Source: Patescibacteria group bacterium (lineage in GTDB: Bacteria > Patescibacteriota > UBA1384 > XYA2-FULL-43-10 > 1-14-0-10-43-13). From it: 64,000 nt of DNA. The number at the start of each line of letters is the position of its first letter. Positions within the stretch are counted from its first letter, which is position 1. A program made the translations under genes and the position numbers. Of this stretch, positions 23,915-58,677 are shown piece by piece. The notes under the pieces were generated by a model that saw only the letters and a program-made list of their open reading frames with translations, did not search any database and was not told the origin of the DNA. The stretch lies in contig JBAZNP010000001.1 in NCBI GenBank assembly GCA_041649155.1, forward strand, positions 494,564 to 558,563, in the 5' to 3' direction.

Positions 23915-23959
23915 TTGGGGAATTATAACTTGTTTCTTCGCCTTAAATGCAAGGAAATT

Positions 23960-27577: not shown

Positions 27578-27587
27578 AGAGGGTTTG

Positions 27588-28520: not shown

Positions 28521-28539
28521 TTGCAAAGCAATTAAAGAA

Positions 28540-28637
28540 TATGTCAAATTAAAAATTACAAATTACAAATAAAAATCCAAATGATCAAATTTCAATATAT
28601 TTGGCATTAGAAATTAGGAATTTAGGAATTATTAATA
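28540..28637 (+). repeat. AT-rich intergenic repeat (family of 2921-3000)
   Basis: aaattacaaattacaaataaaaatccaaat...ttggcattagaaattaggaatttagg. Confidence 0.55.
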
Positions 28638-34428: not shown

Positions 34429-34491
34429 ATAAGGAAAACCCCAGTTAAATAATTTCTCTTTGGTTAATATTTAACGGGGTAAAGGAGAATT

Positions 34492-41844: not shown

Positions 41845-43398
41845 ATGAAGTTACATGAACTAACAATTAAAGAGGCGAGTGAGAAGCTGGCGAATGGCGA
41901 AATCACTTCAGTTGAATTGACTGAGGCTGTTTTTGAACGGATCAATGCTGTTGAGCCAAGAGTCGGTGCATATATTACTTTATGTAAAGAAAAAGCGCTG
42001 GAAATGGCCGAAGCTTCGGACGAAAGAAGAAGAGACGGCAATATTTTAAGTGAAATTGACGGTATCCCAATTGCAGTAAAAGATTTGTTTTTAACCAAAG
42101 GTGTAAAAACCACTGCCGCTTCAAACATTTTAAACGACTTTATCCCTATTCACGAGTCAACTTCGACAAAAAATCTATGGAAAGCCGGAGCGGTTTTGAT
42201 TGGCAAGACCAATCTTGATCAGTTTGCTATGGGTTCTTCAACGGAAACTTCAGCTTATAAAACATCAAAAGAATTTAATTCAACTACCAGAAATCCTTGG
42301 GACCTAGAAAGAGTTCCCGGCGGTTCATCGGGTGGTTCTGCGGCGGCTGTGGCGGCAGATGAGTGCATTGCTGCGGTTGGTACGGATACCGGTGGCTCAA
42401 TTCGCCAGCCAGCTAGCCTTTGCAGTATCACAGGTTTGAAACCAACTTATGGCCGCGTTTCCCGTTATGGAGTAATGGCGATGGCATCTTCTCTTGATCA
42501 GGTTGGTCCGATGACTAAAACAGTGGAAGATGCTGCGATATTATTAAAATATTTATCCGGATGGGACAAATATGATTCGACAAGTTCAAAAAAAGATGTA
42601 CCAGACTATATAAAATCTATAAACAAAGATATTAAGGGTTTAAAAATTGGCGTTCCTAAAGAATTTTTTGCTGAAGGATTATCACCGGAGGTAAAAGAAA
42701 TTGTAGAAGAGGGAATAAATAAGCTTAAATCGCTTGGAGCTGAGATCGTTGATGTTTCTTTGCCAATAGCAAAATATGCTTTAGCTGTTTATTATATTTT
42801 AATGCCGGCGGAAGTTAGCTCAAATTTGGCCAGGTTTGATGGTATTAGGTATGGTCTATCGACCATCAAGAAACAAGATGCAAATATCAAAAATCTGGAG
42901 GAGGTTTATTCAAAGTCACGAGCGGAAGGTTTTGGTGATGAAGCCAAAAGAAGAATAATGCTTGGAAGTTATGTTCTATCAGCTGGCTACTATGATGCAT
43001 ATTACAAAAAAGCTCAGAAAGTTAGAACGCTGGTAAAAAAAGAATTTGAAGAGATATTCTCCAAGGTAGATGTGATTGTTACTCCTGTGACACCGACGCC
43101 TGCCTTTAAGTTCGGTGAAAAAGTTGCAGATCCTCTGTCAATGTATTTGTCTGACGTAATGACCGTACCGGTAAATCCGGCGGGCTTGCCTGCAATGTCA
43201 ATTCCGGCTGGATTTGTTAACGCCGCATCCACCGAAGGTGGAGCAGGCGCCCCTGCTTCCGAAGGAATGCGGGGAAATAAAGAACTTCCAGTCGGTATGC
43301 AATTAATTGGTCCAATGTGGGGAGAGCAAACTTTATTAAACGTTGGATCTGCATTTCAGGATGCAACAGAATTTCATAAAAAGAAACCTTCCTTATAA
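41845..43398 (+). CDS. gatA: Asp/Glu-tRNA amidotransferase subunit A (with in-frame palindromic insertion)
   Basis: Amidase signature GGSSGGSAAAVAA. Confidence 0.9.
   Translation: MKLHELTIKEASEKLANGEITSVELTEAVFERINAVEPRVGAYITLCKEKALEMAEASDERRRDGNILSEIDGIPIAVKDLFLTKGVKTTAASNILNDFIPIHESTSTKNLWKAGAVLIGKTNLDQFAMGSSTETSAYKTSKEFNSTTRNPWDLERVPGGSSGGSAAAVAADECIAAVGTDTGGSIRQPASLCSITGLKPTYGRVSRYGVMAMASSLDQVGPMTKTVEDAAILLKYLSGWDKYDSTSSKKDVPDYIKSINKDIKGLKIGVPKEFFAEGLSPEVKEIVEEGINKLKSLGAEIVDVSLPIAKYALAVYYILMPAEVSSNLARFDGIRYGLSTIKKQDANIKNLEEVYSKSRAEGFGDEAKRRIMLGSYVLSAGYYDAYYKKAQKVRTLVKKEFEEIFSKVDVIVTPVTPTPAFKFGEKVADPLSMYLSDVMTVPVNPAGLPAMSIPAGFVNAASTEGGAGAPASEGMRGNKELPVGMQLIGPMWGEQTLLNVGSAFQDATEFHKKKPSL
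43227..43275 (+). repeat. in-frame palindromic element family 3 (CCACCGAAGGTGG-GCAGGCGCCCCTGC), copy in gatA
   Basis: Encodes ASTEGGAGAPASEGMRG. A near-identical nucleotide segment is at 56477-56531. Confidence 0.8.
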
Positions 43399-43423
43399 GA
43401 AGTTTAAGGTCTATCTAATTTCT

Positions 43424-43470
43424 AGCCCCGATGTCATATCGGGGTTGCAACCGTCGAAATTCGACAAACC
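43424..43470 (+). repeat. intergenic repeat family 2 (CCCGATGTCATATCGGGG...TCGAAATTCGACAA)
   Basis: Second copy at 52457-52506. Confidence 0.7.
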
Positions 43471-43504
43471 TTAAACTTTACACTGGTATATTAATGGAAA
43501 AACG

Positions 43505-44158
43505 ATGGGAAAAAGAGCAAGAATAAGAAAACAGAAGATTGAGCAGGAAAAGATCGAGCGCAAAGAGATGCTTGAAAAAATTTACTATGAAAAAAATCCA
43601 TGGTTGAAATTTTGGAAAAGAATAGATTTCTGGATTTATACAGTTTGTCTCTTGGCTGTTATTGCTTATCCGTTTGCGATGAAAGGAAAAATTAACATGA
43701 ATGACAGGGCAATTATTCATACTTCAATGGGTGATATTGAGATTGAATTGTACGGAAAAGATGCACCTAAAACAGTTGATAATTTTGAAAAGCTTGCCAA
43801 AGAAGGTTTCTATGATGGTCTTTTATGGCATCGTGTTGTTGAAGGCTTTGTAATCCAGACAGGTGATCCAAACGGAGATGGAACTGGCGGTCCGGGTTAT
43901 CAATTTGACGATGAGATAAACAGTCAAAAATTTGTCACGGGATCAGTGGGTATGGCAAATGCCGGCGAAAACACAAACGGCAGCCAGTTTTTTATTACGA
44001 CTAGCGCAGAGGCTGAACAGTCATTGGATGGTAAATATACTAATTTTGGATTGGTTGTCAGGGGACTGGATGTAGTGCAGGCAATAGGCGTTGCTCCGGT
44101 TGATGAAAATGACAAGCCGCTTAGTGATATTACAGTTGAAAGTATTGAGATTAAATAA
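43505..44158 (+). CDS. ppiB: cyclophilin-type peptidyl-prolyl isomerase with N-terminal basic/TM anchor
   Basis: HRVV.GF..QTGDP, GPGYQFDDE, MANAGENTNGSQFFIT. Confidence 0.85.
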   Translation: MGKRARIRKQKIEQEKIERKEMLEKIYYEKNPWLKFWKRIDFWIYTVCLLAVIAYPFAMKGKINMNDRAIIHTSMGDIEIELYGKDAPKTVDNFEKLAKEGFYDGLLWHRVVEGFVIQTGDPNGDGTGGPGYQFDDEINSQKFVTGSVGMANAGENTNGSQFFITTSAEAEQSLDGKYTNFGLVVRGLDVVQAIGVAPVDENDKPLSDITVESIEIK

Positions 44159-44233
44159 TTTAAATTACCAAATGTTTAAACATTGTAAATTTAGATTTTT
44201 AATTCATTTTAAATTTTAAATTATAAATTAAAG

Positions 44234-44689
44234 ATGTCATATCAAAAACATTCTAAAAAACAGAGCAAAACATTTCTCGAGATAGCACTTGTTGGCATTA
44301 TGAGGGCTTTATGGTTTTTAATAAAACTTCCTTTCAAGGGTATGGCAAAAAAGAAGGGCATTTCGGTTGCAGAGCGAAATGAAATTACGTTAAGAAGACA
44401 TAAAATTGAAAGCCTTTTAAATAGTAATAGCGAAATTGAATTAAAACACGCTGTTTTAGAAGCAGATAAACTAGTTGATCACATTCTAAAATTGAAGGGT
44501 TATGAAGGCGACACTTTCGCGGACAAATTGAGATCAGCGGAAGAAAGCATGAGCCACTTAACATATAATGAAATCTGGCAGGGTCACAAAATCAGAAATC
44601 GTATTGCTCATGAGAATGAATTAAGAATCACGAATCAAGAATTAAGAACAGCCGCAGACAAGCTATTAAAATTCACAAAGAGTATTTAA
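44234..44689 (+). CDS. hypothetical HEPN-like domain protein with N-terminal hydrophobic helix
   Basis: 151 aa. C-terminal helical region with R-x4-H (RNRIAHE). Confidence 0.45.
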   Translation: MSYQKHSKKQSKTFLEIALVGIMRALWFLIKLPFKGMAKKKGISVAERNEITLRRHKIESLLNSNSEIELKHAVLEADKLVDHILKLKGYEGDTFADKLRSAEESMSHLTYNEIWQGHKIRNRIAHENELRITNQELRTAADKLLKFTKSI

Positions 44690-44788
44690 GCCATACAGAA
44701 AGCTAATATAACGAATTTAAACAAAAATTATTAAACGGTTAGTTTTTATTAGTTGTATTCGCCTTTTGTATAGAAGTAAGGAATATTT

Positions 44789-46186
44789 ATGCCAAATCTT
44801 AAAACTACAATCGGACTGGAAATTCATGTTCAGCTCAAAACAAAGAGCAAAATGTTTTGTCGTTGCGACAACAATGCTGAAAATAAAGCGCCAAATACGA
44901 CTGTCTGTCCGATCTGCTTAGGAATGCCGGGAACACTTCCTGTTATGAATAAACAGGCGGTTTTGTGGACGATTAAAACCGGTTTAGCTGTGAACTGTAC
45001 TATTCCCAAAATTGCCAAGTTTGACCGTAAACATTACTTTTATCCCGACTTACCAAAGGGTTACCAGATTAGCCAGTATGACGAACCGTTTTGTGTCGGT
45101 GGATATCTTGAAGTAGATGGCGCAAAAGTGCGATTTAATAGAATCCATCTAGAAGAAGATGCTGGAAAATTGATCCATTCAGACGGAAAAAGTCTGGTTG
45201 ATTTAAATCGTGCCGGCACGCCATTAATGGAAATAGTTACTGAGCCGGATATAACATCTCCAAAACAAGCAGGTGATTTTTTACGTGAACTCCAGAAAAT
45301 TGTTCGTGATGTTGTGCAGGTTTCTGATGCGAATATGGAGAAAGGGCATTTGCGTTGCGATGCCAACATTTCTATTACTGACGGTGAACGGATGTCAGAA
45401 ATTGTCGAGTTAAAAAACATTAATTCATTTCGTTTTGTCGAACGTGCGCTCATTCTCGAAGAAGAAAGATTGAAAGCAGAATATCCAAATTGGCCGGAGA
45501 AGAAAGGCAAGGTTACCAGAGGCTATGATAGCAAAAAGAATAGTACGTATGCCCAGAGGACAAAAGAGGAAGCGGCTGATTACAGATACTTTCCGGAGCC
45601 TGATTTGCCACCGATTGATACTAGCGAATTCAATCTGGAAGAATTAAAATCAGAAATCGGTGAAGACGAGAAAACCAAAATCGATAAATATATTAAATTG
45701 GGCATTAATGAGTCCGATGCCAAGGTATTGACCACCAATTCTAATAAAGAGAAAATGTTTATTAATATTTCAGAGCATTTAAAATCGAATAATTTATTTT
45801 CTATTCTTGCTACTGCAATAGTTCATAATTACTTTGGTTTTGAAGACATCACCATGGATAAATCCAATGATTATGCTGGAGCGATCGAGGCCTTGGTTGA
45901 CAAGAAAATATCAAAGAATGTCTTATCTCAAATTGTTGGTCAAATTCATGACAGTAACATCTCCTTTGAGGAGGCCTTCAGCAAATTCTCAGGTGAGAAT
46001 GAAAATATTGATTTAGACGAAATAATTTCAAAAATAATTTCCGATAATACTAAAGAAGTTGAGGCATATAAATCGGGTAAGAAGCAGCTGTTTGGATTTT
46101 TCATGGGACAAGTGATGAGAGAAACTGGCGGTAAAGTCGATCCTGCTCTTGTAAATAAAACGCTTCACGATAAGTTGGACAACTAA
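44789..46186 (+). CDS. gatB: Asp/Glu-tRNA amidotransferase subunit B
   Basis: TIGLEIHVQL, CRCDNN, C-terminal GatB/YqeY. Confidence 0.9.
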   Translation: MPNLKTTIGLEIHVQLKTKSKMFCRCDNNAENKAPNTTVCPICLGMPGTLPVMNKQAVLWTIKTGLAVNCTIPKIAKFDRKHYFYPDLPKGYQISQYDEPFCVGGYLEVDGAKVRFNRIHLEEDAGKLIHSDGKSLVDLNRAGTPLMEIVTEPDITSPKQAGDFLRELQKIVRDVVQVSDANMEKGHLRCDANISITDGERMSEIVELKNINSFRFVERALILEEERLKAEYPNWPEKKGKVTRGYDSKKNSTYAQRTKEEAADYRYFPEPDLPPIDTSEFNLEELKSEIGEDEKTKIDKYIKLGINESDAKVLTTNSNKEKMFINISEHLKSNNLFSILATAIVHNYFGFEDITMDKSNDYAGAIEALVDKKISKNVLSQIVGQIHDSNISFEEAFSKFSGENENIDLDEIISKIISDNTKEVEAYKSGKKQLFGFFMGQVMRETGGKVDPALVNKTLHDKLDN

Positions 46187-46338
46187 TAATCCTCGCAATG
46201 ACAAAGGAAGTTTTTACAAAATCACATTGCTTAAACAGTAATTTGGTAATATAATTAGAACTACTTAGGCTTTATATCTTATAGATTAAAAATTTGGGCT
46301 AAAGGCCCATCAGCCTCTGGCTGAAAATTGGAGGGGAA

Positions 46339-46608
46339 ATGATAATTGATGTTCTTATTCAAATCTTGATAGTGGTTGCCATAGTTGCAATTACGCTTCT
46401 GATTATTGTTCTTTGGAAAACAAATATAGTACTGGATGATTTCAAGGAAACCAGCAAGATTGCAAAGAGGAGAGTAAAGCAGCTAGATAGCTGCCTTGAT
46501 GGTCTAGAAAATGCAATTAACAATGCTTCGAGTGTAATTAAAGGATTTTGTTCTTCTTTGGAGACCGGTCAAAAAATTAAAGAAAAATTAAAAAGTTTTT
46601 GGGAATAA
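46339..46608 (+). CDS. DUF948-like small membrane protein
   Basis: N-terminal TM plus coiled coil. Pairs with the downstream YtxH-like gene. Confidence 0.5.
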   Translation: MIIDVLIQILIVVAIVAITLLIIVLWKTNIVLDDFKETSKIAKRRVKQLDSCLDGLENAINNASSVIKGFCSSLETGQKIKEKLKSFWE

Positions 46609-46620
46609 GGAAGGAAAATC

Positions 46621-46854
46621 ATGACAAATAAACCGGAAGGATCTAATGGTAAATTTGTAATTGGCGCTGTGCTTGGCGTATTGGCTGGTGCAGTTGCAGG
46701 AGTTTTGCTTGCGCCGCGAAGTGGTAAAGAAACCAGAAAAATCGTAGCAAGCAAGACAAAAGAATATAAAAAGAGCGGAACGGAGTTTGTCGCGAAAGAA
46801 GCGAGTGTCGCTAAGAAAGCTATTGAAGATACTGTTGATAAAATTAAAAAATAA
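46621..46854 (+). CDS. YtxH-like protein
   Basis: GAVLGVLAGAVAGVLLAPRSGKETR is the YtxH signature. Confidence 0.65.
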   Translation: MTNKPEGSNGKFVIGAVLGVLAGAVAGVLLAPRSGKETRKIVASKTKEYKKSGTEFVAKEASVAKKAIEDTVDKIKK

Positions 46855-46868
46855 ATAGGTGAGGTTAT

Positions 46869-48077
46869 ATGAAAAAAGTTGAATATGAAGATTCAATTGA
46901 TGATGATTTGAGAGGTGATGTAAAACCAAAAAGACGTAGGTGGGCTCTTTTTATTGCAATAGTTGTTATTGCCTTTATTGTTGGAGTCATCGGTGGGTTG
47001 GGTGGAATTTTAGTTCTGTCGGCAGATAACGGAAATATAGCTAAAAAATTGGGACTTAATTTTTCCGAGCTTTCAATTCCAACTATAAAAACTGAAAAGC
47101 TGGTTTTGGAAGAATCCAATGCAGTTATTGATGCTTCCGCTAAAGTATCGTCGGCGGTTGTTTCAATTCAGCAAAAATCAACTGTTCAGGATCAATTTGG
47201 CCAAACATATGAGACAGGTGGATCTGGTACTGGTTTTATTATTACAAATGATGGCTTAATTCTAACAAATAAACATGTGGTTACTGATACAACTGCAAAA
47301 TATACAGTAACAATGGACGATGGTAAAATATACGATGCTGTCGTGCAATCGGTTGATCCTTTTCAGGATATTGCGGTAATAAAAATCGATGCTAAAAATT
47401 TACCGGTTGTTGAACTGGGAGATTCAGATGAATTGAAGGTGGGGCAGTGGGTGGTCGCTGTAGGAAACGCTTTGGGTAAATTTGAGAATACTGTAACGGT
47501 CGGAATTATTTCTGCTAGAAATAGAACAATTGAAGCTACCGATGACCAAGGTAATAATTCTGAATCTATGGACAATGTTATACAAACAGATGCCGCAATT
47601 AATTCCGGTAATTCTGGCGGTCCGTTGGTTAATCTGAAAGGTCAGGTTATTGGGATAAATACTGCAGTTGCTGCTGATGCACAAGGTATTGGGTTTGCTA
47701 TTCCTATTAACGAAGCGAAATCAGCAATCGACAGTATTAAAAAAACCGGCAGAATTATAAGGCCCTATCTGGGGGTTAGATATCTGCCTATTACAAAAGA
47801 AATTGCCACAGCTAATAAATACCCTGTTGATTATGGGGCACTGATAGTGAAGGGCAGTTCGGATAGTCAGGTTGCAGTTGTGCCTAGTTCGCCTGCGGAT
47901 AAAGCGGGAATTACTGAAAACGATATTATTCTAGAAGTTAACGGCGATAAAATTGACGAGAATAACGGATTGATAAAGCTTATTCAACAATATCAAGTTG
48001 GGGACACAGTGGAACTAAAAGTTCTTTCTAACGGTGATGAGAAGACGGTTAAGGTCAAGTTAGAAGAAGGAAAGTAA
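46869..48077 (+). CDS. htrA: HtrA/DegP trypsin-like serine protease with PDZ
   Basis: GSGTGFIIT...LTNKHVV (His), D, GNSGGPLVN (Ser), C-terminal PDZ. Confidence 0.9.
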   Translation: MKKVEYEDSIDDDLRGDVKPKRRRWALFIAIVVIAFIVGVIGGLGGILVLSADNGNIAKKLGLNFSELSIPTIKTEKLVLEESNAVIDASAKVSSAVVSIQQKSTVQDQFGQTYETGGSGTGFIITNDGLILTNKHVVTDTTAKYTVTMDDGKIYDAVVQSVDPFQDIAVIKIDAKNLPVVELGDSDELKVGQWVVAVGNALGKFENTVTVGIISARNRTIEATDDQGNNSESMDNVIQTDAAINSGNSGGPLVNLKGQVIGINTAVAADAQGIGFAIPINEAKSAIDSIKKTGRIIRPYLGVRYLPITKEIATANKYPVDYGALIVKGSSDSQVAVVPSSPADKAGITENDIILEVNGDKIDENNGLIKLIQQYQVGDTVELKVLSNGDEKTVKVKLEEGK

Positions 48078-48078
48078 G

Positions 48079-48107
48079 AAAAAAATCCGCCTAGAGCGGA
48101 TTTTTTT
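48079..48107. terminator. bidirectional rho-independent terminator
   Basis: AAAAAAATCCGC-ctaga-GCGGATTTTTTT. Confidence 0.8.
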
Positions 48108-48109
48108 AA

Positions 48110-48228
48110 ATGTCTAAACCTTAATGCCTAATGACTAATAAAAATCTAAATGACAAATTTATAAATTTAATAATTGGACATTTTATTTGAAATTAGAAAT
48201 TAGGATTTTGGATTTAAATGATTGATGC
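48110..48228 (+). repeat. AT-rich intergenic repeat (family of 2921-3000)
   Basis: ttggacattttatttgaaattagaaattaggattttggattt. Lies between convergent genes. Confidence 0.55.
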
Positions 48229-48259
48229 TTGTTTGGGTTAATTAGAATAATTAGGTCAA

Positions 48260-49171
48260 TTAGACATTTATTTCTACATATCGATCTAAGCCGGCCAAAT
48301 CTTTTATTAGTTCCACCTCAGAGTGGGGGAATTGTTTTTTTGCAAATTCCAAAATTGATTTTGCGTTACGGCAGTCAAGTTCTAGCAATATTAATCCGTC
48401 TTGAACAACGTGACTTTTTGCTTCAATTAAAAATCTTTTAACAATCGCCATGCCGTCATCATCGGCAAAAATTGCACTTTGTGGCTCAAAGGAAATGCCT
48501 TCTTTAATTCCATGATTCATAATTCTAGATTCATGATTCTGGTGGCGGGGGACGTATGGTAAATTTGCGGTGATTAAATCAAATTTTTTATTTAAAAATC
48601 GGTTGGAGAATAGATCGGAATTATAAAATTTAATATAGTTATCAACTTTATGATTTTTTGAATTTTTTTTAGCAACCGCTATCGCCTTCTTCGAAATATC
48701 TGTCGCATAAAATGCGACAGAATCATGAATCATGAATCTTGAATCAAGGAGGGATTTAATAAGCGAAATTATGATACAACCAGAACCAGTTCCCACATCG
48801 AGAATATTTATTTTCTCATAATTCTTGATTCTAGATTCTTGATTCTGAAAAAAAACTATGCTTTTTTCCACCAGCCATTCGGTCTCTGGCCGCGGGATGA
48901 GTACATTTTTATTTACTATAAAATCATTGCCAAAGAATTCTTTGTGCCCTAAAATGTAGGCGATTGGCTCCCCTATTTTTCGTTTTCTGATATGGTGGCG
49001 GAAACGATAATATTGTGAGTTTGTAATTAAGTACTCTGGATGAGAGAAGATAAAAACATCATTTTTGGAGGTAGTTTTCATCAAAAGCAATTTAGCATCA
49101 ATTTCTGCCGATTTAATGCCGGCATTTTTTAGCTCGAGAATTGATTTATTTAAAAGAGATTGAAGTGTCAT
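48260..49171 (-). CDS. prmC: release factor glutamine methyltransferase PrmC/HemK
   Basis: N-terminal MTLQSLLNKS. SAM motif ILDVGTGSGCI and NLPY (NPPY-type). The ORF stays open upstream to the ATG at 49312, through a palindromic element. Confidence 0.8.
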   Translation of the reverse strand: MTLQSLLNKSILELKNAGIKSAEIDAKLLLMKTTSKNDVFIFSHPEYLITNSQYYRFRHHIRKRKIGEPIAYILGHKEFFGNDFIVNKNVLIPRPETEWLVEKSIVFFQNQESRIKNYEKINILDVGTGSGCIIISLIKSLLDSRFMIHDSVAFYATDISKKAIAVAKKNSKNHKVDNYIKFYNSDLFSNRFLNKKFDLITANLPYVPRHQNHESRIMNHGIKEGISFEPQSAIFADDDGMAIVKRFLIEAKSHVVQDGLILLELDCRNAKSILEFAKKQFPHSEVELIKDLAGLDRYVEINV

Positions 49172-49177
49172 TGATAT

Positions 49178-49312
49178 GTCATTTCGAGCCATTCCGAACC
49201 CGCTGCTGGGCGGATTTGAGGAAGGCGACCTGCCTGCCGGCAGGCAGGGAAATCCTATCGCATACGCGATGACGGGATCCCTCGACTCGCATTCACTCGC
49301 TCGGGATGACAT
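49178..49312 (-). repeat. palindromic element family 1, copy G (135 bp), in-frame upstream extension of prmC
   Basis: GTCATTTCGAGCC...GCTCGGGATGACAT with an internal palindrome GACCTGCCTGCCGGCAGGCAGG. Confidence 0.8.
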
Positions 49313-49319
49313 TTAATTG

Positions 49320-50384
49320 TTAGCTTTGTTGTGCAAGCTTTAAGGCTTGGTCTTCGTCTATTAGAGCGGTAATTATTGGTTCAATGTCGCCGTTCATAAT
49401 TTTAGGCAGGGAATGCCAAGACTGGTTAATTCTATGATCTGTAATGCGATCCTGAGGGAAATTGTAGGTTCTAATCTTTTCTGATCTGTCACCTGTTCCA
49501 ATCTGGGATTTTCTTGCGTCCCCTCTTTCTTTCGCCAGTCTTTCTTCTTCTGCCACAAGCAAACGCGAGCGTAAAATACTCATGGCTTTAGCTTTGTTCT
49601 TTAGCTGGCTTTTTTCATCCTGACAACTTACCACCAAGCCTGTTGGTAAATGAGTTATCCGGACAGCAGAATCAGTTGTATTCACTGACTGTCCGCCAGG
49701 TCCAGATGAACGGAACACATCTATTCTGATTTCGTCTGGTTTTATTTCGATATCTGCTTCTTCTGCTTCAGGGAGAACAGCCACGGTAATTGTGGAGGTG
49801 TGAATTCGACCTGACTTTTCTGTTTCAGGAACACGCTGAACCCTGTGAACTCCACTTTCATATTTCATTTTTGAATAGACTTTTTCACCTTTTACTTCAA
49901 GTGCCATGTATTTGACACCGCCGACTCCCGATGTTTGAGATGATAAAATGCCAATATGCCAGCCTAGTGTTTCGGCGTAATGTGAGTACATTCGGAAAAT
50001 TTCTGCGGCAAAGAGCTCTGACTCTTCTCCGCCCGCTGCTGGCCGTATTTCAATTATAACGTTCTTTTCGTCCAATGGATCTTTCGGCAATAATTCAAGC
50101 TCAAGTTCTTTTTCGAGAACCTGTTTTTCGTTTTCTAGATCAGATAGTTCTTCTTGCGCAATTTCTTTTAGTTCTTCGTCTTCGCTTTGCAGTATTTCTT
50201 TATTTTCCTTGATATTTTTTTGTACAACGAAAAATCGCTCGGTTTTCTTAGCAAAATCTTCAGATGCTGACTTCTCTTTAGCCAGTTTTGCGTATTCTGA
50301 AGGATCGCCCTGAATTGCAGGGTCATTAAGCTTATTCTCGAGTTCTTTGTACCGGTCTAAAATTTTTTGTAATTTATCATTCAT
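49320..50384 (-). CDS. prfA: peptide chain release factor 1
   Basis: GGQ motif ([23 protein letters not shown]), RF1-type PxT region. Start [12 protein letters not shown] at 50384; ORF open to 50471. Confidence 0.88.
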
Positions 50385-50435
50385 ATAAATAAAAATTGCT
50401 ACATTGCTAAATTGTTGAATTGCTAGGATTACCCA

Positions 50436-50482
50436 ACAATATAACAATAAAACAATATAACAATATAACAATATAACAATTA
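50436..50482 (+). repeat. tandem 8-mer microsatellite (ACAATATA)n
   Basis: acaatataacaataaaacaatataacaatataacaatataacaat. Confidence 0.75.
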
Positions 50483-50489
50483 ATTAAAG

Positions 50490-50759
50490 TTATTTATCGT
50501 CTTTTTTGTTTGAACCGTTGTTGTTCTTTTTTTCTGTTTTGGCTTCTTTAGCTTTGCTGGCTGCTTCCATTCTGGCTTTAAACTTGTCTACGCGTCCGGC
50601 AGTATCAACTAACTTTTGCTTGCCTGTGTAGAATGGGTGACATTGAGAGCAGATTTCAACCTTGATTTCCTTTTCGGTTGATCCAACAGAAAATACTGCG
50701 CCGCAAGCGCATTTAACTTCTGCATCGTTGTAGTATGTTGGATGAATTCCTTGTTTCAT
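50490..50759 (-). CDS. rpmE: 50S ribosomal protein L31 with K-rich C-terminal tail
   Basis: [10 protein letters not shown]...CxC...CxxCHPFYTG. Confidence 0.9.
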
Positions 50760-51002
50760 TTCATTCTCCGATTGAATTTACTCAATAAGATTAACACAAA
50801 CCTTGTCCTGCGTCAATATTTATGCTAAAGTAATCTTGTTTTTAATAAATCGTCCCGACGTTCATCGGGATAATACACACGCCTATCTCAAAATTCTTCC
50901 CGTCTGGTGGGAGCCAGCCGAGGATTGTTAGGCGGAAGTATAAAGAATTTAATCGATCCCACGTCGCCCCTAGGGGGCTATGCGGGACAGAAAGGAATTG
51001 TT

Positions 51003-51707
51003 ATGGTAAATTTACCGTCTCTACGCGAGATGCTTGATGCTGGTGTTCATTTTGGTCACAAGACCTCTAGATGGCACCCAAAAATGGAGCCTTACATTTT
51101 TATGGCTAAGAACGGGGTTTCTGTTATCAATCTGGAAAAAACAGAGGAAGAACTTAAAAAAGCTGTTGACTATGTTCGTGATTTGGCTGTTTCTGGTAAA
51201 ACCATTGTTTTTATTGGTTCGAAGAAGCAAGCTGGGGAAATTGTTAAAAAGGCAGCAGTTAATTGTGGTATGCCCTACGTTAACTTTCGTTGGGTTGGTG
51301 GAACTTTAACAAACTTTGAGACTGTTAAAGTTGCAATTAAAAAATTCAAAGCACAGAAAGAAGAATTGGAAACATCTAACGCAAAACTTTCCAAAAAGGA
51401 ATTATCCAAGCTTAGAGAAGTTGTTGAAAAAGGCGAAAAACTTTTTGGCGGAATGGTGAATCTTGAAAGAAAGCCTGACGCCTTAATTCTTTTGGGTGTT
51501 CATGATGAAAGAAACGCCTTAAGAGAAGCCAACTTAGAAAAAATTCCTGTTGTTGGTATGGTTGATACAAATATGGATCCAACCAATGTCGCATATCCGG
51601 TTCCTGCAAATGACGATGCTACAAAGTCAATTGAACTATTTGCTAATTTATTTTCACGAGTGATAAAGGAAAATAAAGGCTTGGCTAAAGCTAAAGAAGA
51701 AAAATAA
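51003..51707 (+). CDS. rpsB: 30S ribosomal protein S2
   Basis: MVNLPSLREMLDAGVHFGHKTSRW. RBS AAAGGA. The ORF extends upstream to 50907 with no supporting signals. Confidence 0.9.
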   Translation: MVNLPSLREMLDAGVHFGHKTSRWHPKMEPYIFMAKNGVSVINLEKTEEELKKAVDYVRDLAVSGKTIVFIGSKKQAGEIVKKAAVNCGMPYVNFRWVGGTLTNFETVKVAIKKFKAQKEELETSNAKLSKKELSKLREVVEKGEKLFGGMVNLERKPDALILLGVHDERNALREANLEKIPVVGMVDTNMDPTNVAYPVPANDDATKSIELFANLFSRVIKENKGLAKAKEEK

Positions 51708-51830
51708 ACATACAAAAGGCGAATAAAACGAATAAAAGCTAAAAGTTAAATTCGTTTTTCGCTCAAATTAGTTATATTAGCTTTCTGTATGGTTTTAAAC
51801 AATTAAGAAAGCAATAAATCTTAAAGGAGT
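51703..51830 (+). repeat. conserved leader element shared by tsf and gap (GCGAATAAAACGAATAAAA...TTCGCTYAAATTAGTTATATTAGCTTTCTGTAT)
   Basis: Second copy at 60523-60615. Confidence 0.7.
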
Positions 51831-51833
51831 ATT

Positions 51834-52424
51834 ATGACTATAACTGCAAAACAAATCGCTGAGTTTAGAGCCAAGACTGGTCTTCCTATGATGGAGTGCA
51901 AAAAAGCCCTGACTGAAACAAGTGGCGATGAAGAAAAGGCGTTAGAATTTTTAAGAAAAAAAGGCATAGTTAAAGCAGCGGAGAAATCAGAACGGGACAC
52001 TAAAGCTGGTTTGATTGAGTCTTACATTCATAATGGTGGAAGAATCGGGGTTTTGGTTGAAGTTCTATCTGAAACCGATTTTGTAGCCAAGAATGAGGAA
52101 TTTAAATCATTTGTTCATGACATAGCTCTTCATATCGCAGCTGTAAATCCAAAATATGTCTCGAAAGAAGAAGTTCCAGCTGAAGAGATTAAAGAGCAAA
52201 AGAAAAATTTAGAAGAACAAGTTGCTGGCGAAAACAAGCCTGCTGAGATTGTTGAAAAAATCATTAGCGGTAAACTTGAAAAATATTATTCTGAAATTTG
52301 TCTTTTAAACCAGCCCTATGTCAAAGATCCGGATATTACTGTTGGCGAGCTTCTTTCTAGTAAGATACAAAAAATTGGTGAAAATATTGTAATTTCCCGT
52401 TTTGTTCGATTTGAAATTGCTTAG
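51834..52424 (+). CDS. tsf: elongation factor Ts (short form)
   Basis: ITAKQIAEFRAKTGLPMMECKKAL is the UBA-like N-terminus. Confidence 0.9.
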   Translation: MTITAKQIAEFRAKTGLPMMECKKALTETSGDEEKALEFLRKKGIVKAAEKSERDTKAGLIESYIHNGGRIGVLVEVLSETDFVAKNEEFKSFVHDIALHIAAVNPKYVSKEEVPAEEIKEQKKNLEEQVAGENKPAEIVEKIISGKLEKYYSEICLLNQPYVKDPDITVGELLSSKIQKIGENIVISRFVRFEIA

Positions 52425-52456
52425 TAGTGTGTTAGAATTAGGTGAGGATATCAAAT

Positions 52457-52506
52457 TTTAGTCCCGATGTAATATCGGAATTGCAATCGTTGAAATTCGA
52501 CAATCC
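52457..52506 (+). repeat. intergenic repeat family 2, copy 2
   Basis: GTCCCGATGTAATATCGGAATTGCAATCGTTGAAATTCGACAATCC. Confidence 0.7.
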
Positions 52507-52531
52507 TTACCTAATTTTGAACAGGAATATC

Positions 52532-53245
52532 ATGGCAAAATTAAAATACAAACGCGTACTATTAAAACTCTCAGGGGAAGTTCTTTTGGGGTCACAGGAT
52601 TTTGGTATTGATCCGGAGGTTGCTGATTTTATCGCCTCTGAAATAAAAGACCTTGTAAAAATTAAGGCGAAAGTCGTGATCGTTTTTGGCGGTGGCAATA
52701 TTTCAAGAGGTCGTGATGCACATCATAAAGGATATGACAGGATTACTGGTGATCGAATTGGGATGCTTGGAATTGTTATGAATTCCCTGGCTCTAGGTAA
52801 TGCTTTAAGCAAGATTGACGTTGCCAATAAAGTATATTCTGCTGTTGATATGCCAAAAATCTGTGCCAGCTATTCTCACGAGAAAGCTTTAGATGATCTG
52901 GAAGATGGTAAAGTAGTGATCATCGGTGGCGGGACAGGTAGCTTTCATTTTTCGACTGATACTGCGGCGGCGCTTAGGGCATGCGAACTTGATTGCCAAG
53001 TGGTTTTAAAGGCAACCAAGGTTGACGGTGTCTACGATAAAGATCCGCAAAAATTTTCCGAAGCTAAAAAGATTTCTGAACTGCATTATCTTGATCTTAT
53101 TAATAATGATTATAAGGTAATGGATTTTACAGCTGTAACATTGTGCATGGACAACAAACTACCTATTCTGGTATTTGAATTAATGAAACGAGGAAACATT
53201 AAAAGAGCAGTTTCTGGTGAAAAAATTGGAACAATAATCGATTAG
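52532..53245 (+). CDS. pyrH: UMP kinase
   Basis: KYKRVLLKLSGE, GGGN. RBS AGGAA. The ORF extends upstream through a repeat. Confidence 0.9.
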   Translation: MAKLKYKRVLLKLSGEVLLGSQDFGIDPEVADFIASEIKDLVKIKAKVVIVFGGGNISRGRDAHHKGYDRITGDRIGMLGIVMNSLALGNALSKIDVANKVYSAVDMPKICASYSHEKALDDLEDGKVVIIGGGTGSFHFSTDTAAALRACELDCQVVLKATKVDGVYDKDPQKFSEAKKISELHYLDLINNDYKVMDFTAVTLCMDNKLPILVFELMKRGNIKRAVSGEKIGTIID

Positions 53246-53353
53246 CAATACTAATTACAAATATACAAATTATTACAAAAAGTACGTGAAAGAATTAATA
53301 CCCCAGTTAAATAATTTCCCTTTGGTCAATATTTAACGGGGCAAGGGAGTAAC

Positions 53354-53911
53354 ATGATAGATCAAATAATTACAGATATTAAGCCAAAAATGAAGAGCGC
53401 TATTGACAATTTAACTACTGAATTACAGAGAGTCAGGACTGGAAGAGCGAACGCCAGTATTTTGGATGGAATTTCAGTCCCATATTATGGGTCTACTTCT
53501 TCGATCAGAGAAATGGCTTCAATCACAATTCCAGAACCTACTGTGATTGCAATTAAACCTTGGGACAGGAATGCTTTATCTGACATTGAAACGGCGATCA
53601 GGTCCTCTGACATTGGTTTGTCTCCCATCAATGATGGTGTTCAGGTAAGATTGGTTTTGCCTCAAATGACCGAAGAAAGAAGGAAGGAAATAGTCGGTCA
53701 AGTGAAGAAAATGGGGGAAGATGCCAAAGTTTCAATTAGAAATGTTCGTGGCGACGCATGGACAAAGGTTCAACAGGCGGTGAAGAAAAATGAGGCAACC
53801 GAAGATGATAAATACGGTGCCGAAGAAGAGTTGAACAAATTGACATTGGAAAAAAACAAAGAAATTGACAAAATAATTTCTGACAAAGAAATAGAAATAA
53901 TGAAGATTTAA
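53354..53911 (+). CDS. frr: ribosome recycling factor
   Basis: RRF pattern and the rpsB-tsf-pyrH-frr gene order. Confidence 0.9.
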   Translation: MIDQIITDIKPKMKSAIDNLTTELQRVRTGRANASILDGISVPYYGSTSSIREMASITIPEPTVIAIKPWDRNALSDIETAIRSSDIGLSPINDGVQVRLVLPQMTEERRKEIVGQVKKMGEDAKVSIRNVRGDAWTKVQQAVKKNEATEDDKYGAEEELNKLTLEKNKEIDKIISDKEIEIMKI

Positions 53912-53924
53912 TAGAGATTTTTAT

Positions 53925-55010
53925 ATGATTCTCACTATAGTTGTGTTTTTGCTTGTAATCGGTGTTTTAATTCTGGTTCATGAATTTGGCCATTTTATTA
54001 TGGCTAAAAAAGTCGGCGTTAAAGTCGAGGAATTTGCTATCGGGTTTCCTCCAAGATTGTTTTCAAAGAAAAAAGGTGAAACCGAATATTCTATAAATGC
54101 TATTCCGCTTGGCGGTTATGTTAAAATGCTTGGCGAGCTTGAGCATTCAAAAGATAAACGGGCATTTGAAAATCAGACTCCTGGAAAACGTTTTTCTATT
54201 GCGGTAGCCGGCGTGGTAATGAACTTAATTTTAGCTTGGGTTATATTAACCATTGGTTTTGCAGCCGGAATGTCGCCGATCGTTTCTTCGCCGGATGCAA
54301 TTCCAGGCAAGAAACTTTCTTCTGAAATTATTTTTGCTGACGTTAGTCCTAACTCTTCTGCTGAAAAAGCCGGAATTTTGTCCGGAGATGTGGCAATATC
54401 TGCTACATCGAGCGGAGAATTGGTGGAATTTTCATCCTTAGACCAATTTGATAAATATAACAGCGATCACAAAAATCAGGTTGTAAAATATCAGATCAAA
54501 AGAGACGGTAATACGATTGAAAAAGAGGCCGCGCTCTCTGACGATAGTGATTCACAACTGGGAGTGGCAATTATTGAGAAAGCGGTCATAAGGGTTCCAT
54601 GGTACAAGGCTCCTTATGTTGCATTGCATGAGACATATGAAATTGTAAAATTGACATTCGAATTTTTCGGCAGCTTTGTAAGTAAGTTATTCTCAACTGG
54701 GACGGTGGAAGAGGGTGTCGGCGGTCCGGTTGCGATCTATGTCTATACTGGCATGGCGGTTAAGGCAGGAGCAATGGTGCTTTTACAATTCGTTGCTCTT
54801 CTTTCAATCAATTTAGCAGTTATAAATATTTTACCTTTTCCGGCTTTGGATGGCGGAAGATTGGTATTTATTTTACTTGAGAAAATCTTTAAAAAAAGAG
54901 TAGTTAAAGAGAAGGTTGAAAACACTATTCATCTTGTCGGCTATGCCCTACTCATTCTTCTAATAGTAGCCATCACATATAGAGATATCGCAAATTTATT
55001 TCACAAATAA
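53925..55010 (+). CDS. rseP: site-2 protease RseP (M50 with PDZ)
   Basis: HEFGHFIMAK (HExxH), PDZ, LDGG motif. Confidence 0.85.
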   Translation: MILTIVVFLLVIGVLILVHEFGHFIMAKKVGVKVEEFAIGFPPRLFSKKKGETEYSINAIPLGGYVKMLGELEHSKDKRAFENQTPGKRFSIAVAGVVMNLILAWVILTIGFAAGMSPIVSSPDAIPGKKLSSEIIFADVSPNSSAEKAGILSGDVAISATSSGELVEFSSLDQFDKYNSDHKNQVVKYQIKRDGNTIEKEAALSDDSDSQLGVAIIEKAVIRVPWYKAPYVALHETYEIVKLTFEFFGSFVSKLFSTGTVEEGVGGPVAIYVYTGMAVKAGAMVLLQFVALLSINLAVINILPFPALDGGRLVFILLEKIFKKRVVKEKVENTIHLVGYALLILLIVAITYRDIANLFHK

Positions 55011-55034
55011 CCCCCCATCTAGTTTATATTAAAT

Positions 55035-55108
55035 GTCATTTCGACCCCCCGGCTTGTCGGGGTTGGAGAAATTTTATCAAAAGATCCCTCGACTACGCTC
55101 GGGATGAC
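55035..55108 (+). repeat. palindromic element family 1, copy H
   Basis: GTCATTTCGACCCCCCGGCTTGTCGGGGTTGGAGAAATTTTATCAAAAGATCCCTCGACTACGCTCGGGATGACAATGG. Confidence 0.85.
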
Positions 55109-55120
55109 AATGGAGAAACT

Positions 55121-56344
55121 ATGAAACAATCACAACTTTTCTTCAAAACCCGAAAAGAGGTTCCTGCTGATGCCGATTCAATAAACGCATCTTATTTGGT
55201 GCGGGCTGGTTTTGTTCATAAACATATGGCTGGTGTGTATGCGCTTCTGCCGCTTGGCTCAAGAGTTTATCGTAAAATTGAAAATATTATTCGAGAGGAA
55301 ATGGACGCTGTTGGCGGACAAGAAATACTAATGAATGTATTGCAGCCGAAAGAACTCTGGGAAGAAACAAATCGATGGGAGTCGGCGATTGATGTTTTTT
55401 ATAAATTAAAAGACAGTCGTGGCAAAGAGTTAAATTTAGCTCCGACACACGAAGAAGAAGTTACGGATATTGTTCGAAAAAATATTGGATCATATAAAGA
55501 ATTACCGTTTAGCTTGTATCAGATCCAAACCAAGTTCCGAAATGAACCAAGAGTTAAGTCCGGTCTTTTACGCGGCCGTGAATTTATAATGAAAGATATG
55601 TACAGCTTTTCGGAAAGTCAGGAACAACACGACAAATTTTATGAAAAAGTCATACCATCTTACTTTAATGTTTTCAAAAGACTTGGTTTGAATGCCAAAC
55701 TTGTGGAGGCATCGGGCGGTATTTTTTCCAAATATTCTCATGAATTTCAGGTTATAACCCCAGTTGGCGAAGATACAATTTTTTATTGTGACAAATGTGA
55801 TTTTGCTCAGAATAAAGAGATTGCGGAAGTCAAAGATGGCGATAAATGTCCAAAATGCGATGGGAAAATTAAGAGTGATCGTGGGATTGAAGTCGGCAAT
55901 ATTTTTCCTCTTAAAAACAGATTTTCTGAACCAATGAAAGCAACTTTCCTTGATAAAGACGGCAAAGAACAGAATTTTATTATGGGATGCTACGGTATCG
56001 GTTTGACTAGGAGTCTGGCCACTATTGTTGAAATATATTATGATTCGACAAAAAACAAGATGATCTGGCCGGAGGAAGTTGCTCCATATCAAATTCATCT
56101 ATTGTCTTTAAATAAAAACGAAGAAGCTGATAAATTGTATGAAAAACTCATAAAAGACGGTGTTGAAGTTTTGTATGACGATAGAAACATGTCAGCTGGA
56201 GAAAAATTTGCAGAAGCTGATTTGGTTGGTTGTCCAAAAAGAATTATTGTTTCTGAAAAGTCTCTAAAAAGTGGTGGCGTTGAAGTAACTGATGTAAAGA
56301 CGAGCAAATCAGAAATCCAGAAAATAGAATCACTTAAGATATAA
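55121..56344 (+). CDS. proS: proline--tRNA ligase, minimal form without INS editing domain, with Cys4 insert
   Basis: Class II motifs (FRNEPRVKSGLLRGREFIMKDMYSF) and a C-terminal anticodon-binding domain, at 407 aa. Confidence 0.8.
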   Translation: MKQSQLFFKTRKEVPADADSINASYLVRAGFVHKHMAGVYALLPLGSRVYRKIENIIREEMDAVGGQEILMNVLQPKELWEETNRWESAIDVFYKLKDSRGKELNLAPTHEEEVTDIVRKNIGSYKELPFSLYQIQTKFRNEPRVKSGLLRGREFIMKDMYSFSESQEQHDKFYEKVIPSYFNVFKRLGLNAKLVEASGGIFSKYSHEFQVITPVGEDTIFYCDKCDFAQNKEIAEVKDGDKCPKCDGKIKSDRGIEVGNIFPLKNRFSEPMKATFLDKDGKEQNFIMGCYGIGLTRSLATIVEIYYDSTKNKMIWPEEVAPYQIHLLSLNKNEEADKLYEKLIKDGVEVLYDDRNMSAGEKFAEADLVGCPKRIIVSEKSLKSGGVEVTDVKTSKSEIQKIESLKI

Positions 56345-56451
56345 ATATAGTTTAACCGATCATGGAAAAGTATAACTCAGACTAAAATACGAGTTATACT
56401 TTTTTTGCAGTATCATGGTTTTTCGATTCAATAAGTGTTATATAGTTAGTA

Positions 56452-57942
56452 ATGACAAAAAAAATATCAGACGTCGCATCCACCGAAGATGGAGCAGGCG
56501 CCCCTGCTCTCGATGAAAGCGAAATGCGGGGAAAAATCAAAGACTTTCCCAAAGCTCCGGGGATTTATCAATTTATCGATGATGACGGTAAGATTTTGTA
56601 TATTGGCAAAGCGAAAAATCTGCAGAATAGGATAAAATCATACTTTTTAAAAGAAGTTGGCAGGGGTCCGGCAATTGATTTAATGATCCAACTAGCAAAA
56701 GATATCAAATGGACAACAACGGAGAGCGAGATTGAAGCCATTTTGCTTGAAGCGGAATTAATTAATAAACTGAAACCGAAGTATAATGTTCGTTTGAGGG
56801 ATGATAAGTCATTCTTGGTAATTAAGATTGCCAAGAAAATTTCTAATTCCAAATATTCTTCGAGCGATAGCGAGAAGTCTGGAAATAGAGTTCTCGGCAA
56901 AGCCTCGAACAATAATATTGATAATTGGCAAAATTTTCCATGTGTTGAGCTTGTTCGATTTAAGGATGTTGATTTTTCTGACAAGTCCGCGGATTACTTT
57001 GGGCCGTACCCATCGGGACTGCTTTTAAAGAAATCGATAAATTATTTAAGAAAAGTATTTCCTTTTCGGGATTGTTCTAAAACAAAATATAATACATACC
57101 GCAAAAAAGGCCGACCCTGCATTTATGGTGACATACGGGTTTGCACCGCGCCTTGTGTCGGCTGGGTAAATGAGAAAGAATATCAAAAAAATATTAATTA
57201 CTTTAAAGACTTTTTGCGCGGTAAAAAGGGGTCTATTATTAAAAAATTAAAAACTCAAATGCAAGATCTTAGTAAGGCTAAGCGTTTTGAAGAAGCTGGT
57301 CTTGTTCGAAATAAGCTTAATGCTTTGGATCACATGAAAGATGTTGCGGTTGGCTTGCGAGACGATGCTTTTAACGGTGAAAACATTATTTTTCCAAGAA
57401 TTGAGTGTTACGACATTTCAAATATTGGGGAGTCATATGTTGTTGGTTCCATGGTTGTATTTAAAGACGGAAAACCTAGCACAGACGATTATCGTAAATT
57501 TAAGATTAAGAATAAACCTACATTGTCATTCCAGCCTGTAGCTCGAGAGCTGGAATCCAGGAAAGGGGAAACTGGATCCCAGATCGAGTCTGGGATGACG
57601 CATAGTGGAGAAAGCGATTTATCAAGATTGAACGAAATGCTAGACCGCCGTTTTAAAAACGATTGGCCGCTTCCAAATTTGATCGTGATTGATGGTGGAG
57701 AAAATCAGTTAAGAGTGGCAACAGATATATTAAAAAAACATAGCTTAAATATTCCGGCAGTTTCTATTTCAAAAGGGAAAAGAAGAGATAAAAACGAATT
57801 TCATTTTTCTGATGAAGCAACCGCAAAATATATTAGTAAAAATGTTTCTTTGCAAAATGTGCTGATTCAAGCACGTGACGAAGCCCATCGCTTTGCCATA
57901 AATTATTATCGATCTCTGCATAAAAAAGGGTTGTTTAAATGA
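56452..57942 (+). CDS. uvrC: UvrC-like excinuclease (GIY-YIG + UvrC core + RNase H-like domain; no C-terminal HhH2)
   Basis: GIYQFIDDDGKILYIGKAKNL, UVR-like FEEAGLVRNKLNAL, ECYDISNIGESYVVGSMVVFKDGKP, IDGGENQL, RDEAHRFAI. Carries two in-frame repeat elements. Confidence 0.8.
   Translation: MTKKISDVASTEDGAGAPALDESEMRGKIKDFPKAPGIYQFIDDDGKILYIGKAKNLQNRIKSYFLKEVGRGPAIDLMIQLAKDIKWTTTESEIEAILLEAELINKLKPKYNVRLRDDKSFLVIKIAKKISNSKYSSSDSEKSGNRVLGKASNNNIDNWQNFPCVELVRFKDVDFSDKSADYFGPYPSGLLLKKSINYLRKVFPFRDCSKTKYNTYRKKGRPCIYGDIRVCTAPCVGWVNEKEYQKNINYFKDFLRGKKGSIIKKLKTQMQDLSKAKRFEEAGLVRNKLNALDHMKDVAVGLRDDAFNGENIIFPRIECYDISNIGESYVVGSMVVFKDGKPSTDDYRKFKIKNKPTLSFQPVARELESRKGETGSQIESGMTHSGESDLSRLNEMLDRRFKNDWPLPNLIVIDGGENQLRVATDILKKHSLNIPAVSISKGKRRDKNEFHFSDEATAKYISKNVSLQNVLIQARDEAHRFAINYYRSLHKKGLFK
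56477..56531 (+). repeat. in-frame palindromic element family 3, copy in the UvrC-like gene N-terminus
   Basis: CATCCACCGAAGATGGAGCAGGCGCCCCTGCTCTCGATGAAAGCGAAATGCGGGGA encodes ASTEDGAGAPALDESEMRG. Confidence 0.8.
57525..57603 (+). repeat. palindromic element family 1-related, copy I, in-frame inside the UvrC-like gene
   Basis: GTCATTCCAGCCTGTAGCTCGAGAGCTGGAATC...GGATCCCAGATCGAGTCTGGGATGACGCAT, close to the intergenic copy at 58601-58677. Confidence 0.8.
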
Positions 57943-58600: not shown

Positions 58601-58677
58601 GTCATTCCAGTCTGTGGCTTGGAGCTGGAATCTATATAAATAATCTTCTGGATCCCAGATCAAGTCTGGGATGACGC
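58601..58677 (+). repeat. palindromic element family 1-related, copy J
   Basis: GTCATTCCAGTCTGTGGCTTGGAGCTGGAATC...GGATCCCAGATCAAGTCTGGGATGACGC. Confidence 0.8.

Follow-up and report, generated by a model that had tools for sequence, protein, structure and literature searches.

Why should three unrelated genes of one bacterium share a stretch of nearly identical DNA? This question was raised by a 64,000-nucleotide (nt) stretch from a Patescibacteria group bacterium (assembly GCA_041649155.1, contig JBAZNP010000001.1; the whole stretch is called the window), in which an earlier note had pointed to such a segment inside gatA, near the start of a UvrC-like gene and, degenerately, in ftsE. The segment was present in all three genes. 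We conclude that it is probably a mobile, non-autonomous DNA element in which two GC-rich hairpins lie side by side (the double-hairpin element). The copies, with boundaries set by comparison of empty and filled sites and by a covariance model, and the genes that host them are as follows.

43221-43274, plus strand: double-hairpin element, gatA copy; 54 nt, G+C content (GC) 0.70, 74.6 bits with the covariance model
43221-43249, plus strand: hairpin A of the gatA copy, CGCCGC.AT-CCACC-GAA-GGTGG-AGC.AGGCG
43250-43274, plus strand: hairpin B of the gatA copy, CCCC.TGCT-TCC-GAA-GGA-A.TGCGGGG
56472-56531, plus strand: double-hairpin element, uvrC-like copy; 60 nt, GC 0.63, 67.6 bits
56472-56500 and 56501-56531, plus strand: hairpins A and B of the uvrC-like copy, with four stem pairs broken relative to the orthologous copy in the relative L182
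27737-27796, plus strand: double-hairpin element, ftsE copy; 60 nt, GC 0.58, 75.7 bits
27737-27765 and 27766-27796, plus strand: hairpin A (two broken pairs) and hairpin B (T...A terminal pair) of the ftsE copy
41845-43398, plus strand: host gene gatA, amidase family, 517 amino acids (aa)
56452-57942, plus strand: host gene for a UvrC-like GIY-YIG nuclease, 496 aa
27588-28520, plus strand: host gene ftsE, whose low-complexity N-terminal extension of about 80 aa holds the element copy

A 32-mer over the first hairpin and the core matched at 43225 (no mismatch) and 56476 (one mismatch), with 0.00 matches expected in shuffled sequences. The 14-mer GCAGGCGCCCCTGC, with up to two mismatches allowed, gave five strand-wise matches at the loci 27759, 43243 and 56494 (0.10 in shuffles). 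A repeat search put the three copies in one family (D5), at 88% and 75% identity to the gatA copy. Their GC of 0.58-0.70 compared with 0.38 for the window overall.

Scanning the full 64 kb on both strands with the covariance model, filters off, yielded no fourth copy. The 10 kb upstream of the window, taken from a near-identical assembly, held no copy either, and none was detected with covariance model R1 (made from 29 copies) in 36 kb of sequence of the near-identical assembly and an empty-site relative.

All three copies were read in frame, and their lengths (54, 60 and 60 nt) are multiples of three, as had been claimed. The gatA copy translates as AASTEGGAGAPASEGMRG, at GatA residues ~461-478; AASTEGGAGAPASEGMR is the peptide stretch expected from the translated insert. 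The uvrC-like copy sits after the second base of codon 7. A reading of the uvrC and ftsE copies as 5′ leaders was rejected: the MTK start is unchanged in an empty-site UvrC ortholog, and the extension of ftsE follows a ribosome-binding site and is in frame in the relative L175, whose orthologous ftsE copy keeps the extension frame. The likely start of ftsE is the ATG at 27588, with GAGAGGG upstream (the open reading frame (ORF) finder had started it at TTG 27585). With the extension starting there and in frame in L175, all three window copies are coding.

Comparison of filled with empty sites at uvrC identified the inserted unit. The empty allele (L204, protein P0153) reads TTGACAGA followed directly by AAAAATCAAA. 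In the filled allele (L182, protein P0154), the same two sequences are separated by an insert that begins with CGCCGCAT and ends with ATGCGGGG. The alleles differ by exactly 60 nt, placed between GA and AAAAATC, and no base is duplicated. The ends of the insert are the outermost base pairs of hairpins A and B; with the same ends, the gatA insert comes to 54 nt and the ftsE insert to 60 nt. The mobile unit begins exactly at the first paired base of hairpin A and stops, equally exactly, at the last one of hairpin B. These boundaries are a few bases wider than those first proposed.

The protein alignments agreed with insertion into existing genes. The closest UvrC ortholog, P0153 (88% identity), lacks the insert and reads MTKRLTE-KIKNFPKAPGIYQF, and the UvrC-like protein of the window and P0154 have 20 extra residues after codon 7. 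In an alignment of 120 GatA homologs, the insert was found in three: the query, P0007 (86% identity) and P0030 (74%). The closest homologs P0002 (90%) and P0003 (84%) were without it. The extra residues lie between GF(V/T)x and (N)K(E)LPVG. Relatives are labelled Berkelbacteria. The same site was filled or empty among relatives 75-86% identical in DNA; the insert was not present across orthologs but had a patchy distribution.

The earlier note had also proposed mapping the insert onto the protein structure. It fell on an alignment gap in the Aquifex GatA structure 3H0L and was absent from the solved GatA structures. In the AlphaFold model of GatA it lies in a loop between the C-terminal strands 450-459 and 480-488, with a predicted local distance difference test (pLDDT) score below 50 for residues 466-476.

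In the relative L191 (GCA_023484645.1, 11378-12641), gatA is broken exactly inside the element and restarts at about residue 70. The restarted gene runs through to a second, complete element copy, a misassembly or a rearrangement at the repeat.

The uvrC insert is common to the window and L182, in which it has the same unusual third hairpin, and is absent from L204, although L204 is closer to the window in DNA identity (86% vs 82%). This implies exact loss or allele replacement. Such a pattern would also fit a homing-type insert, in which a nuclease cuts empty sites and repair from filled DNA spreads the insert at a fixed site. The gatA site could be read in the same way, since it is filled in lineages with flanks only 72-79% identical but elements 96% identical, the intermediates being empty. 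The filled gatA sites, however, hold two different subtypes, that of P0030 having a long first hairpin; the site was therefore hit more than once.

Other copies had been predicted for a mobile element, and they were found. A first scan of public genomes with a loose pattern gave 115 hits, mostly chance matches in GC-rich genomes; four were true copies, in Saccharibacteria and another Patescibacteria genome. A stricter pattern applied to metagenome contigs gave 45 loci with about 31 true copies, on low-GC candidate-phyla contigs (33-47% G+C). R1 recovered one further divergent copy among the fetched loci. The copies range from 54 to 76 nt, and most are intragenic.

The genes that host coding copies elsewhere encode ribosomal proteins (L3, S15, L15 in two lineages, L24 and L1), enzymes and factors (BipA, class II fructose-bisphosphate aldolase and a GNAT acetyltransferase), an RNHCP-domain protein, membrane proteins and a GspE-N-like protein. 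Orthologs of the ftsE and uvrC copies of the window were also among them. In all three copies of the window, and in 18 coding copies elsewhere, the reading frame runs through the element without a break. The element occupies at least 18 unrelated sites; apart from a weak GA/AAA preference (the slash marks the insertion point), their flanks have nothing in common, which argues against homing to a fixed site. A non-coding copy in L148/L160 (5780-5839) lies between rnpA/rpmH and dnaA, the usual replication-origin region.

Searches of viral contigs with looser and strict patterns gave noise or nothing, and BLAST against phage and plasmid records gave no match to the element. No description of such an element was found in the literature on candidate-phyla bacteria.

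The structure of the element was next deduced from folding and covariation. For both the gatA and the uvrC copy, the minimum-free-energy fold consists of two hairpins; that of the gatA copy has an energy of -32.9 kcal/mol (z -4.7). In the alignment, 97% of the stem cells form standard pairs. All ten stem pairs of the first and third small hairpins are variable yet paired. Eleven pairs are changed on both sides, and the covariation score was reached by none of 500 shuffles.

The columns of two terminal pairs, 34:64 and 3:33, had been left free by the search pattern. Pair 34:64 (C/T with G/A) is U-A in 17 and C-G in 12 of the 29 copies, and unpaired in none. Pair 3:33 is changed from C-G to T-A in copy L161b, a change beyond selection by the search pattern. 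Compensatory changes thus keep the pairing in every stem pair that varies, both terminal pairs included, so the hairpins matter to the element.

Hairpin B is approximately the reverse complement of hairpin A, and the model also matches the reverse strand with 40-51 bits. The ends of the element are inverted relative to each other: the left end is CGCCGCAT, and the right end reads, as its reverse complement, CCCCGCAT or TCCCGCAT. Two palindromic cores had been described at the outset. CCACC-GAA-GGTGG proved to be a true covarying hairpin. GCAGG-CGCC-CCTGC is better interpreted as the junction of two inverted hairpin units, with GCAGGCG finding its partner upstream in CGCCGC and CCCTGC downstream in GCGGGG, as supported by pairs 34:64 and 3:33. 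A third small hairpin, TTCC-GAA-GGAA, had not been listed. The ftsE copy is degenerate as described, in that its first hairpin has decayed, but it is not a 3′ fragment: it is full length and scores best of the three.

A tRNA-like cloverleaf, with CCGCAT/ATGCGG as the closing helix and three hairpins, fitted equally well (97% of cells paired). It was disfavored, as its closing and central helices are invariant and it leaves the covarying columns 34 and 64 unpaired. Given the covariation at 34:64 and 3:33, we prefer the two-hairpin fold, as read from the alignment, over the cloverleaf or a cruciform form.

Compensatory changes in both hairpins and folding far below shuffled controls would also be expected if the element were a nucleic-acid structure with a function for the host, its spread being secondary or ancient. 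Such a structure might be a site that a protein binds or cleaves, a signal for mRNA processing or stability, or a leader controlling a gene for a small GIY-YIG nuclease (below). The alignment contained G.T in 5 cells vs A.C in 8, an uninformative asymmetry; with G.T cells not above A.C cells, nothing singles out the sense-strand RNA. In the window, a scan with Rfam 15 detected tRNAs only, and the element itself gave no match even at E values up to 10; a scan of four element-carrying loci also gave nothing at the element, and a known RNA family was rejected. Non-Watson-Crick stem cells are most numerous in the uvrC (4) and ftsE (3) copies of the window, which look, from their sequences, to be undergoing local decay. 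Presence and absence at the same site among close relatives and the mutually unrelated host genes also argue against a host function. We consider it unlikely, and return to what favors it below.

The reading frame of the coding copies is strongly biased. Although all six frames of the element are open, 20 of the 21 coding copies agree in their orientation and 5′ reading frame, which gives AAS..GAG(A/V)PAS..GMR(G/E). The length is a multiple of three in 18 of 20 coding copies; the lengths of non-coding copies include 58, 59, 74 and 76 nt.

The single frame, with a peptide rich in A, S, G and P, would be consistent with a motif at the protein level (for instance a linker or modification site) that arose by convergence or domain shuffling. 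About 14 distinct copies are non-coding, however, some with lengths that are not multiples of three. Identity at the nucleotide level extends to synonymous positions. In pair 34:64 an Ala/Val codon is tied to a Gly/Glu(-Asp) codon, which has no protein logic, and in L153 the 3′ half of the element is read in another frame. The low AlphaFold confidence for the GatA segment also does not favor a motif. We therefore give a protein motif next to no credence. The preference for a mobile element over convergent protein motifs, already expressed in the earlier note, was upheld by the patchy presence in orthologs, the exact 60-nt insertion, the non-coding copies and the covariation at the nucleotide level.

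Several observations weigh against a simple mobile element. The first concerns the frame bias. Insertion sites are A-rich, most often GA/AAA: position -1 is A in 19 of 34, position -2 is G in 13 of 34, and positions +1 to +3 are mostly A, with no sharp motif. In the window genes GA/AAA occurs 324 times in sense (183 in the observed codon phase) vs 109 times in antisense. This target preference predicts the observed orientation and phase in about 42% of insertions. As the sole cause of a bias of 20/21 it is too weak, and selection on the peptide must add to it.

The second is the conservation of the element between orthologous filled sites. Identity in gatA is 52/54 (96%) for the element and 72-79% for the flanks; in uvrC, 93% and 73-93%; and in ftsE, 95% and 79-86%. 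An element more conserved than its flanks is not behaving as plain junk. That this holds for flanks in essential genes at all three sites favors a host-used structure. The excess is a sign of selection, of gene conversion or of repeated re-insertion. Contributions could come from gene conversion, from selection acting on the hairpins, from exact excision with re-insertion and from homing-like spread.

Furthermore, the invariance of columns 6-10, 27-40 and 57-62 is partly an effect of the search pattern, and the covariation at 34:64 has two states only and may reflect few evolutionary events. There are only three copies in about 74 kb. The window genes all have housekeeping roles, and neither a transposase nor a small GIY-YIG gene was found in the 64 kb.

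A clue to how the element might be moved came from the non-coding copies. Six of them lie 10-15 nt upstream of an 80-aa GIY-YIG gene (PF01541). In these six candidate-phyla loci the order is a -10-like box, nt 1-8/10 of tRNA-Ser, the element, the rest of the tRNA fragment, a ribosome-binding site, the GIY-YIG gene and an intact tRNA-Ser. The element splits a leftover 15-18-nt 5′ fragment of tRNA-Ser at nt 8/9 or 10/11, again with no duplication.

In the Bacteroidota-like contigs L192, L195, L199 and L203, homologous 80-aa GIY-YIG genes lie in or beside tRNA-Ser or transfer-messenger RNA (tmRNA). There a double hairpin of another kind, the 22-nt TCCCGAAGGGAYTCCTTCGGAR, interrupts the displaced tRNA fragments with exact ends, either after nt 8 or within the anticodon loop or T-loop. 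A literature search on bacterial GIY-YIG/tRNA-Ser cassettes found nothing relevant.

These cassettes bear on two of the alternatives. The element has a fixed place in the GIY-YIG 5′ leaders across distant lineages, and its stems differ there and still pair, as would fit a host-used structure. In these leaders, however, it is found in either orientation. As to homing, the link to GIY-YIG genes favors it, the family including homing endonucleases. Slx1, a GIY-YIG nuclease, is structure-specific. Stand-alone prokaryotic GIY-YIG proteins are minimal Slx1-like nucleases (PMC1564403), and in this minimal form the 80-aa nuclease has no DNA-binding domain for long sites. We regard homing as quite improbable, well behind a host-used structure.

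We return to the mobile double-hairpin element. Its hairpins would form on single-stranded DNA, and a structure-specific enzyme acting in trans would cut and join at the hairpin bases. The intragenic copies that survive would be those with a length that is a multiple of three and one tolerated frame, placed in a surface loop, a linker or a terminal extension. If only such insertions survive, the peptide would be a by-product, not a functional motif. As judged from the reading frames, the element would in this way write a loop rich in A, S, G and P into essential proteins of Patescibacteria.

As its gene lies directly downstream of a non-coding copy in the six tRNA-Ser loci, we infer, tentatively, that the 80-aa stand-alone GIY-YIG nuclease is a candidate for the mobilizing enzyme. 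Somewhat more speculative is that the double hairpins and this nuclease make up a two-part mobile system. The nuclease gene would travel in a cassette inserted into tRNA-Ser (or tmRNA in the Bacteroidota-like relatives). The nuclease would read hairpin or cruciform DNA by its shape and cut at the hairpin bases, and short double hairpins would be moved in trans to new sites without target duplication.

A related arrangement was seen at the start of the window (117-333). A tRNA-Val (117-193) is followed by a strongly folding 119-nt stretch (z -4.7) and an exact 21-nt copy of the tRNA-Val 3′ end at 313-333, broken in the T-loop. This is the signature of a tRNA-gene insertion with a displaced fragment, like the GIY-YIG cassettes but without an ORF.

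Among known elements, repetitive extragenic palindromes (REPs) are short imperfect palindromes that start with GTAG and occur in inverted pairs, and their hairpins are thought to act on single-stranded DNA. As in REPs and the REP doublets called REPINs, two inverted units form a doublet here. The double-hairpin element differs in being mostly intragenic and in its conserved start, CGCCGCAT instead of GTAG. No gene for a REP-associated tyrosine transposase (RAYT, Y1 HUH) or TnpA was found in the 64-kb window.

Movement of the IS200/IS605 type leaves no target-site duplication and involves hairpins at both ends. The element resembles relics of this type in both respects, but it lacks a sharp 4-5-nt target at the left end and has only the weak GA/AA preference. 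[quoted passage not shown] Unlike classical MITEs, it makes no target-site duplication (L204 vs L182), is much shorter, and is all hairpin without internal unique sequence.

The closest parallel in effect is with the Rickettsia palindromic elements (RPEs), of about 100-150 bp (Ogata et al. 2000, 2002, as cited in PMC10969869). According to the account of RPEs in PMC10969869, these too are palindromic repeats inserted in frame in unrelated housekeeping genes, translated and tolerated; they also have non-coding copies. The double-hairpin element, at 54-76 nt and in Patescibacteria, is set apart from the RPEs by description, not by sequence. It also differs in consisting of two hairpins with exact ends and no target duplication, and in having one subfamily tied to tRNA-Ser/GIY-YIG cassettes.

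In architecture, and in architecture only, the closest elements are the short GC-rich double-hairpin elements, or GC clusters, of the AT-rich genomes of fungal mitochondria (Paquin, Laforest & Lang 2000, in PMC7218506), whose mobility, as that account presents it, was argued from presence and absence between relatives. They share with the element a GC above that of the genome (here 0.58-0.70 vs 0.38), the two-hairpin fold and optional presence between relatives. Unlike it, they are organellar and eukaryotic, and in-frame insertion in many essential genes is not their hallmark. In Allomyces, such elements are found near mobile GIY-YIG ORFs that duplicate part of the host gene.

The window also contains other repeats. 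A second hairpin family, CTGGATCCCAGATCRAGTCTGGGATGACGC, probably the 'first' element of the earlier note, is present at 27549-27578 (in the ftsE 5′ leader), 57572-57601 (in frame inside the uvrC-like gene) and 58648-58677 (upstream of a cofD-like gene). The copy in the uvrC-like gene gives the peptide ..TGSQIESGMT.., and the closest ortholog, P0153, has no insert there.

A third family is a nested palindrome of about 90 nt with the ends TGTCATTYCGAC...TCGGGATGACA, at ~10370-10460, 25940-26030 and 55020-55110. Two of its copies are intergenic, and one is in frame in secA (peptide ..SSVISTPRIDSRVEKSPVEDPSTSVGMTSS..).

In the uvrC-like gene, residues ~130-165 and 355-385 (window 56840-56950 and 57510-57610) are two hypervariable insertion hot spots. 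At these, the UvrC homologs P0152-P0191 have varied short peptides, such as VIPAKAGIQ, SFQPVARELESR, FLISNQIPNPK and RNDN, which, going by their sequences, look like translations of various small repeats.

The remaining repeats are outside coding sequence. A common 69-nt leader with a long hairpin (CCCCAGTTAAATA...TATTTAACGGGG), at 34427-34495 and 53289-53357, precedes two genes with no relation to each other, a LemA-like one and frr, and ends at their ribosome-binding site and ATG. A 57-nt intergenic repeat, at 43417-43473 and 52453-52509, has a hairpin and a promoter-like TTGCAA...17 nt...TTAAAC; it is also found downstream of gatA in L191, a relative 75% identical. AT-rich intergenic repeats of AAATTACAAAT and ATTAGAAATTAGGA units (families D1, D2 and D9) are at 23793-23917, 28537-28632, 48106-48220 and 2968-3004. 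Finally, a '23S rRNA intervening sequence protein' (PF05635) is encoded at 61920-62276 on the minus strand, among housekeeping genes and far from any rRNA gene in the window.

In-frame, protein-coding palindromes have so far been known mainly from Rickettsia, and the double-hairpin element is their counterpart in Patescibacteria. Inserts of this kind can break assemblies, as in L191, inflate apparent protein divergence and mislead gene callers. The exact ends, the lack of target duplication and the link to the cassettes make the question of the mover testable, with a 54-60-nt substrate and an 80-aa candidate enzyme. The two-part system, if true, would be a route of transposition or homing undescribed for bacteria, through which ribosomal proteins and other essential ones are repeatedly remodeled in lineages with small genomes.

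The occurrence in Patescibacteria of a family that is unrelated and much shorter suggests a general openness of small, AT-rich, reduced genomes to such invasion. The hosts of palindromic inserts found here include GatA, SecA (with a different element), L3, L15, L24, S15, L1 and BipA. Such inserts may regularly supply the lineage-specific loops and extensions of candidate-phyla proteins.

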